A stretch of 33,904 bases of DNA from Caldilineae bacterium (GTDB taxonomy: Bacteria; Chloroflexota; Anaerolineae; J102), in assembly GCA_003694905.1 (NCBI GenBank), contig RFJM01000149.1, forward strand, positions 1 to 33,904, in the 5' to 3' direction. The notes beneath the pieces are model-generated. The model was not told where the DNA came from, did not search any database, and was given only the letters and a program-made list of their open reading frames with translations. Within the stretch, counting starts at the first letter, position 1. Every line of letters starts with the position of its first letter. Positions 1 to 33,904 of this stretch are shown here, one piece after another. The translations under genes and the position numbers were made by a program.

Positions 1-389
1 GCCGCCGCAATATCGAATTCATCCGGGCCGGCCAGAGCCTTGGCCAGGTTGGCCTCGGCCAGTTTGAGCCCCACCTGCGCTTGTTCCAACGCCAGTTGTA
101 GATCTCGGTCTTCCAGTCGTGCCAGGACCTGGCCCGCCTGCACGTGATCGCCGGGCTCGACCAAGACTTCCTTCACTCGCCCTGTCCCGCGGAAGCTAAG
201 GTTCACCTCTTCCACGGGTTCGATCGAGCCTGTGGCGGAAACGGTTGCCGAGATGTCCCCCTTGCCCACAACATAGACCTCATAATCGGGCGGGGGTGGT
301 TCTTTCTCTTGGGCCGTGGCCTGGTACGCAAACCAGGAGCCGCCAAGAACGACAAGAAGTATGACTAAAGCGATGAGTAATCGACGCAT
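1..389 (-). CDS. Efflux-pump periplasmic adaptor (HlyD/MFP family), N-terminal part; gene continues beyond the left edge
   Basis: Absent from the ORF track because it has no stop inside the window. Reverse-strand translation from the ATG at 389-387 gives MRRLLIALVILLVVLGGSWFAYQATAQEKEPPPPDYEVYVVGKGDISATVSATGSIEPVEEVNLSFRGTGRVKEVLVEPGDHVQAGQVLARLEDRDLQLALEQAQ... This is a signal-anchor helix, then the lipoyl-like hairpin motif and the start of a coiled coil, typical of HlyD/MacA-type adaptors. Confidence 0.75.
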   Translation of the reverse strand, partial: MRRLLIALVILLVVLGGSWFAYQATAQEKEPPPPDYEVYVVGKGDISATVSATGSIEPVEEVNLSFRGTGRVKEVLVEPGDHVQAGQVLARLEDRDLQLALEQAQVGLKLAEANLAKALAGPDEFDIAA

Positions 390-1215: not shown

Positions 1216-1321
1216 TGGGAGATACCTCTAAAGAAACGCAATCGCCGGCGCCTTTATTCATTGCCGACAGTAGCTTCGAAGCCAGACAAAATATTATACC
1301 CTCCCACTTCCGATTCTGTGC

Positions 1322-1408
1322 GAACGTGCGAGCGGGAGAGGGTGCGTTTCAAAACGGGGGCAGCCGGTGTGCCAGGCCGGTAAGGCCCTCCCAAGTTGAA
1401 ACGCGCAC
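1322..1408 (-). repeat. Copy A (short) of a GC-rich structured intergenic repeat family, inverted relative to copies B and C
   Basis: GGGTGCGTTTCAAAACGGGGGCAGCCGGTGTGCCAGGCCGGTAAGG (about 1339-1386) matches the reverse complement of 32703-32748 with about 4 mismatches in 46 nt. The six-frame track shows the same peptide RFKTGAAG(V/T)PGR at both places. A second TGAAACGC motif at about 1397-1404 faces the GCGTTTCA at about 1344-1351, giving an imperfect palindrome. Confidence 0.6.
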
Positions 1409-20094: not shown

Positions 20095-21152
20095 CGATGC
20101 AACGCCGCCCCCGCGCTCTCGTGGTCGAAGATGACAGGTCCTGGCAACAGATCCTGGCCGAATTGCTGGGCGACGCCGGACTGACGGTAGACTTGGCCGA
20201 CACCTACGAAACCGCACTGACGGCAATCAAGGCTGCGCCGCACCGCGTGGCGGTCGTTGACCTGTCGTTGAGCGGCCGCAATCCCCACAATCAGGACGGC
20301 CTGCTGGTACTGGAAGCTATTGGGCGACACGATCCCGGCTGTATCCCCGTGCTGCTCACCGGTTTCGCTACGGTCGAGATTGCGGTTCGCGCCTTGCGGG
20401 AACTGAACGCCTACACCTGCCTGCGCAAAGAGCTCTTTCGTCGCGCCCAATTCCGCGAGCTCATCCGAGAAATCCTGGCCGAACCTTTGCTTGAGAAGGA
20501 GGACGCTGCCGCTGCCCTACCGAGTACGGCGAAAGCCGAAACGTCTGCCGCCGGTCCGGCCACAGAAGGCGCGCATGTGTTGGTGGTGGAAGACGATGCC
20601 GGCTGGGCCGGTATTCTGACGGAATTGCTGAGCGACGAAGGACATCGGACGACGGTAGCCCGTAGCTACGGCGAGGCATTGGGACATCTGCAACGGCAGC
20701 CCTACGATTTACTGGTGGTCGATCTGTCGCTGGCCAGTTCGCTGGCACCCGGCGACAACAGCGACGGTATGCGTCTACTCGCCTTCGGCCGCGATGCGGG
20801 AATCCCGACATTGGTGGTCAGTGGCATGGCCACACCTGACGATACCGAACGGGTCTACCGGGAGTTCGAAGCTTTTGCCTTTCTGGAAAAACAGGCCTTC
20901 GACCGCGGTACTTTCCGCCAGGTGGTGCGGGCAGCCCTGGCCTCCCGGCCCGCAGCCGGGGCGCTGGCACTGCTGACCGACCGCGAACGGCAGGTGCTCG
21001 ACTGTCTTGTGCGGGGTATGAGCAACAAGGAAATTGCTCGGGAACTGGTCATCTCCCCCAATACGGTCAAACGTCATCTCAAGGCTATTTACACCAAGCT
21101 GGAAGTCAACTCTCGTGCCGCGGCCGTGGCAAAGGCGATGGAGGCGCAGTAA
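20091..21152 (+). CDS. Response regulator with two tandem receiver domains and a LuxR/GerE-type HTH
   Basis: The start ATG at 20091 overlaps the kinase stop (ATGA). REC1 has ALVVEDD...VAVVDLSL...VLLTG...LRK. REC2 has VLVVEDD...LLVVDLSL...LVVSG...LEK. The C-terminus [45 protein letters not shown] is a GerE HTH. Confidence 0.9.
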
Positions 21153-21315
21153 CCCGGAGCCTTCGGAACCGCCTTCTACCCGCGCCAGGCCGCAGCAACA
21201 CCGCCCGGTAAACCGAGGCGACGATCGGCGGTTGGGTGTGGCCGCAGGTACAGACGAATCCGTGATTGGCCCGTAAGCGCGGCCACAGCCAACCGGACAA
21301 CCACGCACTGCTTCG

Positions 21316-21525
21316 GCTTGCCGGGCGGTGCTGTATCGCCGCGTTGCGGCGACAGGCTGGAAAGCCTGTCCCACATGCAGCGCTGCCCGAGAAGCTGAAA
21401 CCCCGGCCGCCCGTTTCGGTGGCCGAGGCCGCAGATGCGGGGGCGCTCTCCCGCACCCCCTTGCAGGGGAGACTCTTACCAGCCCGGCGCACCGACTGTC
21501 CCCCTCGTTTTGAAACACACCCCGA
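21316..21525 (+). repeat. Copy B (long) of the GC-rich structured intergenic repeat family
   Basis: GAGAAGCTGAAACCCCGGCCGCCCGTTTCGGTGGCCGAGGCCGCAGATGCGGGGG...CCCGGCGCACCGACTGTCCCCCTCGTTTTGAAACACACCCC aligns block by block with 32633-32748. The track peptides show it: ETGGRGFSFS occurs in the minus-strand ORFs of both loci. It contains the hairpins ACAGGCTggaaAGCCTGT and TGCGGG...CCCGCA. Confidence 0.65.
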
Positions 21526-21538
21526 AGCCGGCTTCGAT

Positions 21539-21568
21539 TTGACACAGCGCGCGGCCCAGGGCTATACT
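21539..21568 (+). promoter_or_regulatory. Candidate sigma70-type promoter of secDF
   Basis: TTGACA (21539-21544), an 18-nt spacer, then TATACT (21563-21568), about 80 nt upstream of the secD ATG and directly downstream of repeat copy B. Confidence 0.5.
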
Positions 21569-21648: not shown

Positions 21649-23058
21649 ATGCAGACACGGAACAACATCATTCTCGTACTCATCATCCTTCTGATTGCCC
21701 TGGCAACTTATATTGCCCTCCCCATCCAACATGTCGACTGGCTGAAGTCCACCATCGCCCGCCACCAGAACCCCGAAAAGGCGTTGGAGCTAAAGCTGGG
21801 CCTCGACCTGCAAGGGGGGACGCAAGTACAGCTCGAGCCGGACGTCAGTGGCGACCGCACCTTCACGCCCGAAGACATCGACAAGGCAAAGGTGATCATC
21901 GAACGTCGTGTCAACGGGCTGGGTGTCACCGAACCCCTGGTACAGACCAGCGGCGAGCGCATCATCGTGGCCCTACCGGGTGTGGATAATCCCGACCAGG
22001 CTATCGAGACCCTGCGCGGCACAGGTCAGCTGGAATTCGTCGATCTATCTACGGCGCCGCCGACCCTCGGGGCCGGCGATACCATCGTGACCTCCCTTTC
22101 CGCGGGCGAGGTGACCACCGACACGGTTGTCTACCCCACCGTCCTGACCGGGGACTATCTTCGCTCGGCCGACGTCACCCTCAGTTCGCAAACCCAGAAG
22201 CCCATCATCGCCTTTGAATTCAAGCCCGAGGGAGCCAAGATCTTCGAAGAACACACTCGCGCCCACGTCGGCGACCGGCTGGCCATCGTAATGGATAAAA
22301 CTATCCTCTCGGCGCCTGTGATCAATGCCGTCATCAGCGACCGGGGCATCATCGAGGGCGACTTCACCCTGGAAGAGGCCCGCAATCTGGCCATCCAAAT
22401 GCAGTACGGCGCACTGCCCGTGCCCCTAAAGGTTGCCGATGTACGCACGGTGGGGCCTTCCCTGGGGCAGGATTCCGTGGATTCCAGCATCAAGGCCGGG
22501 ATCATCGGTGTCATCGTGGTTCTGCTCTTCATGCTCATCTACTACCGCCTGCCCGGCTTCCTGGCCGACCTGGCTTTGCTCAGTTTCGTCGCTCTCAACC
22601 TGGCCGTCTACAAGCTCATCCCCGTCACGCTCACCCTTCCCGGCATCGCCGGTTTCCTGCTAACAACAGGCATGGCAGTCGATGCCAACATCCTCATCTT
22701 CGAACGCATGCGGGAGGAACTGCGCGCCGGGCGCTCCCTGACCAATGCCATCGAGGCAGGATTCTCTCGTGCCTGGACCTCTATTCTGGATTCCAACCTG
22801 TCGACCATTCTCACCGCTTTCATCCTGATGTATTTTGGGTCTAACTTCGGTGCCTCTATGGTTCAGGGTTTCGCGGTCACGCTGCTCATCGGTGTGCTCA
22901 TCTCCATGTTCACGGCCGTATTGGTCACCCGCACCCTCATGCGCTTTGTAGTAGGCCACTTTGGCCGGGCTCTGAGCCCGCATCTGCGCCTCTTCGGCGT
23001 CAGCCGCCTGCAGCGTGACATGAGCCAGGCGGCTCGGGTCTCGGTGCAGGCCCGCTGA
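21649..23058 (+). CDS. secD: Protein translocase subunit SecD
   Basis: N-terminal TM, large periplasmic domain (LGLDLQGGTQV, ERRVNGLGVTEPLVQ), and a C-terminal 5-TM bundle with GIAGFLLTTGMAVDANILIFERMREE. Confidence 0.93.
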   Translation: MQTRNNIILVLIILLIALATYIALPIQHVDWLKSTIARHQNPEKALELKLGLDLQGGTQVQLEPDVSGDRTFTPEDIDKAKVIIERRVNGLGVTEPLVQTSGERIIVALPGVDNPDQAIETLRGTGQLEFVDLSTAPPTLGAGDTIVTSLSAGEVTTDTVVYPTVLTGDYLRSADVTLSSQTQKPIIAFEFKPEGAKIFEEHTRAHVGDRLAIVMDKTILSAPVINAVISDRGIIEGDFTLEEARNLAIQMQYGALPVPLKVADVRTVGPSLGQDSVDSSIKAGIIGVIVVLLFMLIYYRLPGFLADLALLSFVALNLAVYKLIPVTLTLPGIAGFLLTTGMAVDANILIFERMREELRAGRSLTNAIEAGFSRAWTSILDSNLSTILTAFILMYFGSNFGASMVQGFAVTLLIGVLISMFTAVLVTRTLMRFVVGHFGRALSPHLRLFGVSRLQRDMSQAARVSVQAR

Positions 23059-32305: not shown

Positions 32306-32587
32306 TCGGATGGCCTGGCATATTCCCTCGCGGGTTAAGACGATCGCTAAGTACACGTCCGGAAACAAGCCCCCCCTTTTGCCAGTCATTGGCTTATTTC
32401 GGGCCGGCCTCCAATAGCCGTCGACGAAAAGTCAGCCGGCCGCAGGCCCGCGGCCAGAGGTCGGCCTCTGACTCACAGGACCCACAGAGTCCGAGCTTGC
32501 TCGGATGACGCCACAACCAAGGAGGGAAGTGATCTTTAGGCGCCTACTCAGCCTAGCCCTCACCCCCATCACGAGACTACGACAAAC

Positions 32588-32750
32588 CGGTTAGCAGGCC
32601 GTGCTGCTACCGCCTGACTGCGGCGAGCTCTGTCTGAGAAGCTAAAACCTCGGCCGCCTGTCTCGCCGGCCGACGTCGCAGATGCGGGGACGCCCCCGCC
32701 CCTCACCGGCCCGGCGTACCGGCTGCCCCCGTTTTGAAACGCACCCCCTG
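32588..32750 (+). repeat. Copy C (long) of the GC-rich structured intergenic repeat family
   Basis: It aligns with copy B over about 160 nt: GCCGTGCTGCTACCGCCTGACTGCGGCGAG / GAGAAGCTAAAACCTCGGCCGCC...GCAGATGCGGGGA...CCGGCGTACCGGCTGCCCCCGTTTTGAAACGCACCCCC. Its last 46 nt or so align with the reverse complement of copy A. It contains the hairpin GCGGGGacgcCCCCGC. Confidence 0.65.
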
Positions 32751-32761
32751 ACACACGACGG

Positions 32762-32790
32762 TTGACATGGCCCCTGAAGCGCTATATGAT
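32762..32790 (+). promoter_or_regulatory. Candidate sigma70-type promoter of the downstream membrane-protein gene
   Basis: TTGACA (32762-32767), a 17-nt spacer, then TATGAT (32785-32790), about 40 nt upstream of the ATG at 32829 and directly downstream of repeat copy C. Confidence 0.5.
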
Positions 32791-32828: not shown

Positions 32829-33904
32829 ATGAATCCAGGCTACTCCTCCCCGGCTTCGGACACGTGGGAGACAGCAGAGATCCCGGCGAGCGAACACCCG
32901 GACTACTCGGCGCTCGTGGACAGCCGCTGGCTGAAAGACGTGCTGCGTCCCTTGCTCATCGCCATCATGAGCACAAGCCTGTTGCTGGGACCGGTGGCGC
33001 TGGGGAGGATGATCACGCAGGAGGAACGGTATTATCTGCTGTTGCCTTTCTGTTTCGGGGTGGCGCTCGAAGCCGTCTATACCCGCAACTGGCTGGCACA
33101 ACCGCATCTGCGCCGGCATCGGGATGTCCGCATCCAGGTAGGCGAGTTGTCGCTCTGGCTGGTGGTGTTGAGGCTGCTTACCTGGTACATTCGCGGACAG
33201 GTAATCGATCTGGCGGCCGTGAGGGCCTGGCTCTACGAACCGGGCAGTTTTTTCGACCTGCTCTTCCTCTTCGGCATCTTGATGACGGTAGTCGTGTGGA
33301 AATTTGCGGGTCTGATTGCAGGCATATTCATCGACCTGGGCCTGCGGCCGGATGAACTGGTAGACTACAAGGCCGCGCATCGCGAGCGGGCCTGGGTGCA
33401 GGCGTTGCCCGTGGATCGGCAGGCCTTGTTGGAGCAGTATGTCGAGCTGTGGATGTGGGGTGGTGTGCTGCTCGTCTTCACGGCAGCGGTGGGCCGGGTG
33501 CGGTTCGAACCACAGCCCGGCAAGCTCATCGGCTTGCGCACGCTCGGTCTGGGGCCGGATCTCATCCTGGCCCTGGTATCCTATTATCTCGTCGGGCTGG
33601 TGCTCCTCAGCCAGGGGCGGCTGGCACAGCTGCGCGCACGCTGGCACCGCGAAGGCACCCCCGGCATCGCCCAGGTCGCCCGGCGCTGGAACCGATACGC
33701 CCTGCTGGCCATTTTCGGCATCGGCCTGCTGGCTTCTCTGCTGCCCTTTGGCTCTACCTATGGGCTGGCTCTGATTATCGGGGCGGTGATCCAGGCGGTG
33801 CTCTTTCTCTATTTCCTCGTTTTTGCACTGATTACGGGTCTACTCTCATTCTTGCTGGGACTGTTCGGTGTGGCGCCACCGCCGACGGCCCCGTCCCCCC
33901 AACC
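32829..33904 (+). CDS. Multi-pass membrane protein, N-terminal part; gene runs off the right edge
   Basis: Absent from the ORF track because it has no stop inside the window. Translation from the ATG at 32829 reads MNPGYSSPASDTWETAEIPASEHPDYSALVDSRWLKDVLRPLLIAIMSTSLLLGPVALGRMI...LALIIGAVIQAVLFLYFLVFALITGLLSFLLGLFGV. There is no stop for 358 codons, third positions are GC-rich, and there are several clear TM helices. It supersedes the track ORFs 32762-33355 (+) and 32703-33647 (-). Confidence 0.7.
   Translation, partial: MNPGYSSPASDTWETAEIPASEHPDYSALVDSRWLKDVLRPLLIAIMSTSLLLGPVALGRMITQEERYYLLLPFCFGVALEAVYTRNWLAQPHLRRHRDVRIQVGELSLWLVVLRLLTWYIRGQVIDLAAVRAWLYEPGSFFDLLFLFGILMTVVVWKFAGLIAGIFIDLGLRPDELVDYKAAHRERAWVQALPVDRQALLEQYVELWMWGGVLLVFTAAVGRVRFEPQPGKLIGLRTLGLGPDLILALVSYYLVGLVLLSQGRLAQLRARWHREGTPGIAQVARRWNRYALLAIFGIGLLASLLPFGSTYGLALIIGAVIQAVLFLYFLVFALITGLLSFLLGLFGVAPPPTAPSPQ

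Follow-up and report, generated by a model that had tools for sequence, protein, structure and literature searches.

Two long copies of a repeat in the stretch of DNA analysed here (33,904 nucleotides in all; the window) each end shortly upstream of a near-consensus promoter and point towards it, which raises the question of whether the repeat brings the promoter, regulates it, or selects it as a place to insert. An initial annotation had put forward these possibilities, namely that the element carries an outward-facing promoter, that it serves as an upstream activator or UP-like module, or that it inserts preferentially just upstream of promoters. The window is contig C290 of a MAG from the Caldilineales (Chloroflexota), whose assembly (G000) comprises 3.78 Mb in 572 contigs, with 62.5% G+C and an estimated completeness of 81%.

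[quoted passage not shown] The Mutator-like transposases of prokaryotes were defined by Guérillot et al. 2014 (PMC3942029), who reported insertion upstream of sigma-A promoters for p-MULT 3 (TnGBS/ISLre2) and p-MULT 4 (the ISKra4 group); the ISAzba1 and ISMich2 lineages also belong to p-MULT 4. TnGBS is found 15–17 bp upstream of the promoter, the distance from its right inverted repeat being most often 16 bp; in these elements the inverted repeats measure 18–39 bp and have a terminal C, and the duplications measure 8–9 bp (PMC3942029). In the ISKra4 group, elements whose two repeats are near-symmetrical have promoters on either side, the orientation being fixed where the repeats are asymmetrical, and contact with the polymerase initiation complex has been proposed by analogy with Ty3 (PMC3942029). 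A signature motif of the transposase between its domains N1 and N2, with a conserved Asp, has been linked to promoter targeting (PMC3942029).

Our analyses lead us to conclude, with a probability that we put at a little under nine in ten, that the repeats are MITEs mobilised by an ISKra4-family transposase, which inserts them at a fixed distance upstream of pre-existing sigma-A promoters. The promoter-directed specificity of this transposase group is taken from the literature (PMC3942029), and the anatomy of the family, its duplications, promoter register, gene context, replication in other genomes and link to a transposase come from the present analysis.

Three copies of the repeat in the window

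Copy C is a 5'-truncated MITE, the right ~155 nt of which occupy 32591..32746 on the plus strand, as delimited by alignment and by blastn to other copies, which covers query positions 52-208 of 32540-32760. Its right terminal inverted repeat, GCTGCCCCCGTTTTGAAACGCACCC, lies at 32722-32746 (plus strand) and no left inverted repeat is present in the sequence upstream of the copy. A non-conserved gap of 15 nt (32747..32761, plus strand), of which the first 9 nt sit where the duplication is found in intact copies, leads to a sigma-70-type promoter match, TTGACA-N17-TATGAT (32762..32790, plus strand), with the -35 starting at +16 from the repeat end. The geometry initially described for this copy is accurate: GAAAC at 32736-32740, 21 nt, TTGACA at 32762-32767, 17 nt and TATGAT at 32785-32790. 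The gene called downstream (32829..33899, plus strand) has its ATG 39 nt after the -10 and runs past the window end; a Pfam scan of this gene returned no family.

Copy B is a full-length MITE of 289 bp (21234..21522, plus strand, from alignments), in which the left inverted repeat (GGGTGTG at 21234) has decayed and the right one, ending at 21522, is intact; no target duplication is recognisable on its flanks. The promoter match that follows, TTGACA-N18-TATACT (21539..21568, plus strand), has its -35 starting at +17 from the repeat end, and here also the earlier reading is exact, with GAAAC at 21512-21516, 22 nt, TTGACA at 21539-21544, 18 nt and TATACT at 21563-21568, upstream of secD (21649-23058, recognised by its SecD domains). 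In the regions of copies B and C, a consensus scanner found a single promoter-like site each, with 11/12 consensus matches, compared to 0.0-0.1 sites in shuffled sequence. The gene upstream of copy B (20097-21152) encodes a response-regulator receiver domain and a LuxR/GerE-type HTH; copy B lies between the 3' end of this gene and the secD promoter, a tandem and not a divergent context. The 15-16 nt that separate copy B from its -35 (21523-21537) contain a near-perfect palindrome, CCGAAGCCGGCTTCG, which the scanner calls as a weak, minus-strand terminator-like hairpin and which is probably due to chance.

Copy A is an inverted remnant of ~50 nt from the right end of the MITE (1340..1392, minus strand), identified as an inverted match, at 90%, to 32701-32749 and also by blastn, with its inverted repeat at 1340-1364. 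As had been noted, this inverted copy is accompanied by a minus-strand TATAAT (read from 1298 to 1293) with no acceptable -35. The hexamer (1293..1298, minus strand) lies at +42 from the repeat end, where +40/+41 is usual, and upstream of the minus-strand gene at 460-1215; the consensus promoter scan called no promoter at the expected place.

The repeat is an abundant MITE family

When the three window copies were used as blastn queries, they matched well over a hundred contigs of their own assembly, which contains ~212 loci and 218 recognisable ends of the repeat, amounting to 0.86% of the sequence. Alignment of 29 long copies, extended upstream, defined a unit of ~290 bp bounded by terminal inverted repeats of ~25 nt (GGGTGYGTTTCAA…/…TTGAAACRCACCC), with GGGTGYGTTTCAATTTGGGGGCAGC as the left terminus and GCTGCCCCTATTTTGAAACGCACCC as the right. 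The motif GGGTGYGTTTCAAWWTRGGGGCAGC is found at both ends, ~20/25 positions are complementary and the repeats terminate in ...CACCC, thus possessing the terminal C required by PMC3942029. Complete copies range from 175 to 297 bp; shorter families of ~175 bp share the termini of the main ~290-bp family but not its interior. The 29-copy alignment indicates no coding capacity, the unit being rich in GC and hairpins and having no conserved frame. In the host assembly, 11 complete copies are flanked by 9-bp target-site duplications that abut the inverted repeats, six of them exact and five with 1-2 mismatches. A target-site duplication of fixed length, inverted repeats, small size without an ORF and dispersal in multiple copies are characters by which MITEs are recognised, and all four are seen here; the repeat is a MITE family, with a main form of ~290 bp and shorter forms of ~175 bp.

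The initial annotation had singled out the imperfectly palindromic core GTTTTGAAAC as a possible protein-binding site. Since the 29-copy alignment places the repeat boundaries there, this core is part of the right inverted repeat, and the suggestion holds in a modified sense: it is a likely, predicted binding site, as the portion of a terminal inverted repeat that a transposase would recognise.

Several further features of the family were observed. An Rfam scan of the whole window at gathering thresholds gave zero matches, hence the repeat is not a described RNA family. Internal hairpins, for example GACAGGCTGGAAAGCCTGTC with its GGAA loop (copy B, 21337-21365), retain their pairing in other copies through paired changes (GGCCGGAAAGCCGGTC, GGCTCGAAAGC and others), which suggests a conserved single-strand fold of RNA or DNA inside the MITE. 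Among the MITE hits, 76 reach a contig end in the 572-contig assembly; the family is a major cause of contig breaks in its own assembly, and any autonomous copy in this genome is probably unassembled. Approximately ten copies possess an identical extra 37 nt, GACTCGGTTCTAAAGTCTGTTGGTGGCAGAAGGAGGG, outside the left inverted repeat, and left-type ends extended in this way occur on contigs C40, C51, C90, C118, C425, C427, C428, C445, C490 and C495. The extension shifts the register, such that (at least on C445 and C490) the promoter-like site is found ~5 nt past the extension and not at +17.

Promoters lie in register with the repeat ends

For a genome-wide view, flanks were aligned at the last C of the repeat and positions counted from the repeat end; promoters were scored with a standard -35/-10 weight matrix including a small bonus for TGn, and a score of at least 10 within 60 nt was considered positive. 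Across 216 flanks of at least 60 nt, only two features stand out from an even base composition, T-T-(G) at +16..+19 and an A/T block at +40..+46. Among the 214 flanks of sufficient length for scoring, promoter-positive ends number 132/214 (62%), compared to 2.6% of random windows and 9% of gene-upstream windows (-150..-50), and a strong match within 60 nt is absent at the other 38%. The tabulation of distance and orientation for all copies, which the initial annotation had proposed as a check, revealed not random spacing but a sharp peak: in 98/132 positive ends the -35 starts at +16 (27), +17 (54) or +18 (17). A promoter at +14..+20 was found for 112/214 ends (52%) against 0.3% of random windows, a more than 100-fold enrichment, with the mode at +17 corresponding to a 16-bp gap. 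Guérillot et al. took a sigma-A promoter 13-17 bp from the junction at >20% of sites as their criterion for such specificity (PMC3942029), and the corresponding share here is this 52%, with the -35 at +14..+20.

The register does not depend on the matrix. TTG occurs at +16..18 in 94/214 ends and in 10/214 at a control offset, and TAnnnT at +38..48 in 114 ends and in 13 at a control offset. The consensus of the 112 promoter-positive flanks is TTG (99/92/93%) followed by A C A, a spacer of 17 (72 flanks) or 18 (29 flanks) and TGnTAnAAT. The extended -10 TGn is enriched far beyond its small scoring bonus (G 71%, T 52%), which argues that the promoters are real; they presumably also fire.

Such a pattern might in principle arise from random intergenic insertion followed by purging of genic insertions, with copies merely piling up near promoters. 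MITEs are commonly intergenic, and our own gene calls, made by a codon-usage method (3335 genes), class 88% of the assembly as coding. Against this, gene-upstream windows reach the promoter score in only 9% of cases and their matches display no peak of position; base-pair precision, repeated hits into the same 9 bp and the strict orientation of copies in a related genome, the latter two described below, are impossible from purifying selection alone. We give this account, which the position histogram contradicts, a probability close to nil.

The promoter is the target and not the cargo

Promoter-positive ends are closely tied to genes: 103/108 face the 5' end of a gene that reads away from the repeat, at a median of 139 nt to the start codon. 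In this genome a promoter is found at 50/73 R-type ends and at 19/51 L-type ends. Among the 11 complete copies with a clean duplication, ten have a promoter on exactly one side (at the R-type end in six, at the opposite end in four) and none has promoters on both sides. The eight complete copies with two-sided promoters all lack a duplication, and they may be explained by recombination between copies that had inserted in opposite senses. A palindromic target consisting of back-to-back divergent promoters was also considered and was rejected, given that no copy with an intact duplication has promoters on both sides.

The 9-bp duplication directly abuts the inverted repeat and the -35 starts 7 bp beyond the duplication, and both the 16 nt that precede the -35 and the spacer between the hexamers are unrelated from copy to copy. 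A promoter-bearing insertion sequence or Correia-type element would be expected to have its hexamers inside the transposed unit and conserved between copies, which is not the pattern seen here. The hexamers are external to the transposed unit, and the promoter is the target of the element, not its cargo. Elements that abut one another bear on the same point: they are separated by a spacer of 7-9 nt and by no other spacing from 0 to 41 nt in this assembly (and likewise in G010, a relative described below), and where the left end is extended the spacer consists of the 37-nt extension plus 5 or 9 nt. Such a spacer of 7-9 nt is what a second insertion into the same 9 bp leaves behind.

These observations speak strongly against the proposal in the initial annotation that the element carries an outward promoter. 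Some insertion sequences have such a promoter at their end and supply it to whichever gene is downstream. Correia elements of Neisseria and other promoter-bearing MITEs are likewise short, high-copy, intergenic and bounded by inverted repeats, and can affect adjacent genes; Correia-type elements supply promoter parts from within the element, whereas the whole promoter is here host DNA outside the target duplication. That promoter matches follow many ends, sometimes both ends of one copy, and that the inverted repeat contains a -35-like TTGAAA, would be compatible with an outward promoter. However, the -35 and -10 are external to the 9-bp duplication, even near-identical elements show no relationship in the 16 nt ahead of the -35 or in the 17-nt spacer, and A/T enrichment is absent at +10..+15, where the -10 partner of TTGAAA would sit. 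The probability of a promoter supplied by the element is accordingly close to nil in our estimation. A hybrid promoter, combining TTGAAA of the repeat as -35 with a -10 in host DNA, was rejected on the same absence of an A/T signal at +10..+15.

The register recurs in related genomes

Comparison of the full-length MITE with 40 relatives showed that the termini are shared but the body is not; the 290-bp body was found only in the host genome, which is the sole genome of its genus in the comparison. The terminus pattern occurs in 17/28 genomes of the order and a reversed control pattern in none. In a genome of a different genus (G043) the -35 falls at +15..19 in 15/37 ends, ten of them at +17. 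Among public records, a promoter in register follows 9/24 of the terminus matches found in Anaerolineae/Caldilineales MAGs, compared to 0/56 chance matches in other phyla.

The most informative relative is G010, in which 14 copies are near-identical, 13 of them being 214 bp long and the other 282 bp. Their 9-bp duplications are exact at default boundaries in 12/14 and ambiguous by 1-3 nt in the other two. The best promoter match within 60 nt lies at +15..19 for 12/14 copies at the GGGTGCGTTTCAAAAATGGGGC end and for 0/14 at the other end, and, near-identical though the elements themselves are, neither the 16 nt leading up to the -35 nor the 17-nt spacers of different copies are related. The same orientation noted initially in the window is thus strict in this young family, while in the host genome it is only the bias towards R-type ends described above. 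When the joined flanks of one G010 insertion were used to search 11 sibling genomes for an empty site, no orthologous intergenic match was found. The G010 elements, and those of G009, were also considered as possible autonomous insertion sequences, and were rejected as such, both being MITEs of ~215 bp.

The G010 copies bear on a further explanation, in which the spacing is kept by selection and insertion need not be targeted: the element end would act as an UP-like A/T tract, as an activator site at about -62, or as an insulator or terminator against read-through. Positions of about -68 to -59 would be occupied by the A/T-rich TATTTTGAAA of the inverted repeat, GC hairpins are plentiful in the element, and a regulatory function could coexist with targeted insertion. 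Yet the position histogram shows one narrow peak at +16..18 and no further peaks displaced by a helical turn, and the 14 G010 copies, being near-identical and hence recent, are already in register; since these copies are young, their promoters cannot come from selection after insertion. An autonomous insertion sequence, presented in the following section, has the same register, and the published specificity of the transposases accounts for the spacing without any selection (PMC3942029). Selection as the source of the spacing is improbable in the light of these results, although an UP-like or activator role as a secondary effect of insertion is possible. Targeted insertion, the third option in the initial annotation, is instead what the register evidence supports, and it is also a published property of the transposase family.

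A putative parent insertion sequence

Coding sequence associated with these termini was identified in several relatives. In G018, several contigs start inside a repeated coding sequence, the stop codon of which lies within the same inverted repeat as that of the MITE; over its last 63 aa the encoded protein is matched by the C-terminal part of NF033572, a model of ISKra4-family transposases (E 3.6e-12), and TTGACA is found at +17 past the inverted repeat on both contigs that were read. In a family search across the order, G009, G016 and G042 also proved to have ISKra4-type genes immediately adjacent to terminus-pattern hits, with the inverted repeat following the C-terminus of the transposase. 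On contig C65 of G016 there is a complete insertion sequence of 1495 bp with these inverted repeats and a perfect 9-bp duplication, GAGTCAATC.

The transposase of this element (region L025, 149-1511) is divided between two overlapping frames, 149-532 and 504-1511, and the split reflects either a programmed frameshift or a dead copy. The main frame matches NF033572 with an E value of 3.7e-48 (164.7 bits) and the N-terminal frame with 34.8 bits, both scores being below the 205-bit cut-off because the gene is split. The match to the ISLre2 model is far weaker (E 6e-16 against 3.7e-48), and family assignment here means these NCBIfam family model scores. Judged by such matches, the inverted repeats are those of a predicted ISKra4-family transposase element in related genomes.

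A search of the host assembly (81% complete) with NF033572 gave zero hits, and a loose inverted-repeat regex for an autonomous copy in this genome produced mostly false positives and nothing usable. Absence of such a gene from a MAG at this level of completeness is common for repeated elements. As the host assembly has no transposase gene, the link to a parent rests on relatives in other genera.

Discussion

Each feature of the elements of PMC3942029 that we tested is found in the MITE family. The closest resemblance is to the ISKra4 group (p-MULT 4; ISKra2/4/5/6 and others), with which the MITEs share repeats of 18-39 bp ending in C, a 9-bp duplication, a -35 approximately 16 bp from the junction and promoters at either end where the repeats are similar; Chloroflexi, the phylum of the present host, is among the phyla named in PMC3942029. 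The differences are of scale and coding content: the present elements are non-coding MITEs of 175-290 bp at ~200 copies as opposed to insertion sequences of 1.4 kb and more, and no transposase gene is present in the MITEs' own assembly. Promoters accompany about half to two thirds of the sites, which comfortably exceeds the 20% criterion of PMC3942029. That paper makes no mention of MITEs, and our search of the literature returned no description of MITEs of the ISKra4 family, nor of promoter-directed MITE spread.

TnGBS/ISLre2 elements are comparable in their position 15-17 bp upstream of sigma-A promoters, in the dependence of orientation on repeat asymmetry and in duplications of 8-9 bp, and the strict orientation in G010 is similar; they differ in belonging to a separate transposase lineage, in having published hosts that are mainly Firmicutes and, for TnGBS, in being large conjugative elements. 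Ty3 of yeast attains a fixed distance from the transcription start by tethering to the initiation machinery, and the same mechanism has been proposed for the bacterial elements. Ty3 differs in using a retroviral-type integrase at RNA polymerase III genes in a eukaryote, without homology, and so offers a mechanistic analogy only, which is unproven in bacteria.

We envisage that a Mutator-like DDE transposase of the ISKra4 family would mobilise the non-autonomous MITEs by making a 9-bp staggered cut, the proximal edge of which would lie 7 bp upstream of a sigma-A -35, leaving the element end 16 bp (range 15-17) upstream of that hexamer. Pre-existing host promoters would serve as the landing marks and would not be brought by the element, and recognition may well proceed through contact with the RNA polymerase initiation complex.

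Promoter-directed insertion was already known for full-size insertion sequences and conjugative elements with Mutator-like transposases; the present case shows that the same process also drives non-coding MITEs to hundreds of copies in Caldilineales. The repeat is a high-copy new example of known promoter-directed insertion, not a new principle, and, its geometry being explained by a known transposition specificity, annotating it as regulatory or as carrying a promoter would be inappropriate. It is conceivable, though we regard it as unlikely, that beyond their targeted insertion the MITEs have been recruited to serve about a hundred promoters as a common upstream module, either as an insulator or terminator of read-through or as a shared protein-binding site near -62 that ties the genes into one response.

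For the host lineage, the ends of the MITEs constitute a natural map of sigma-A promoters, precise to a base or two, in uncultured Chloroflexota. More than 100 ends, each pointing at a promoter, supply this lineage with a promoter consensus, TTGACA-N17-TGnTAnAAT. They also provide many naturally occurring target sites on which to test how a transposase finds promoters, and such a map could help in asking whether it is the -35/-10 DNA or the bound polymerase that targeting recognises.
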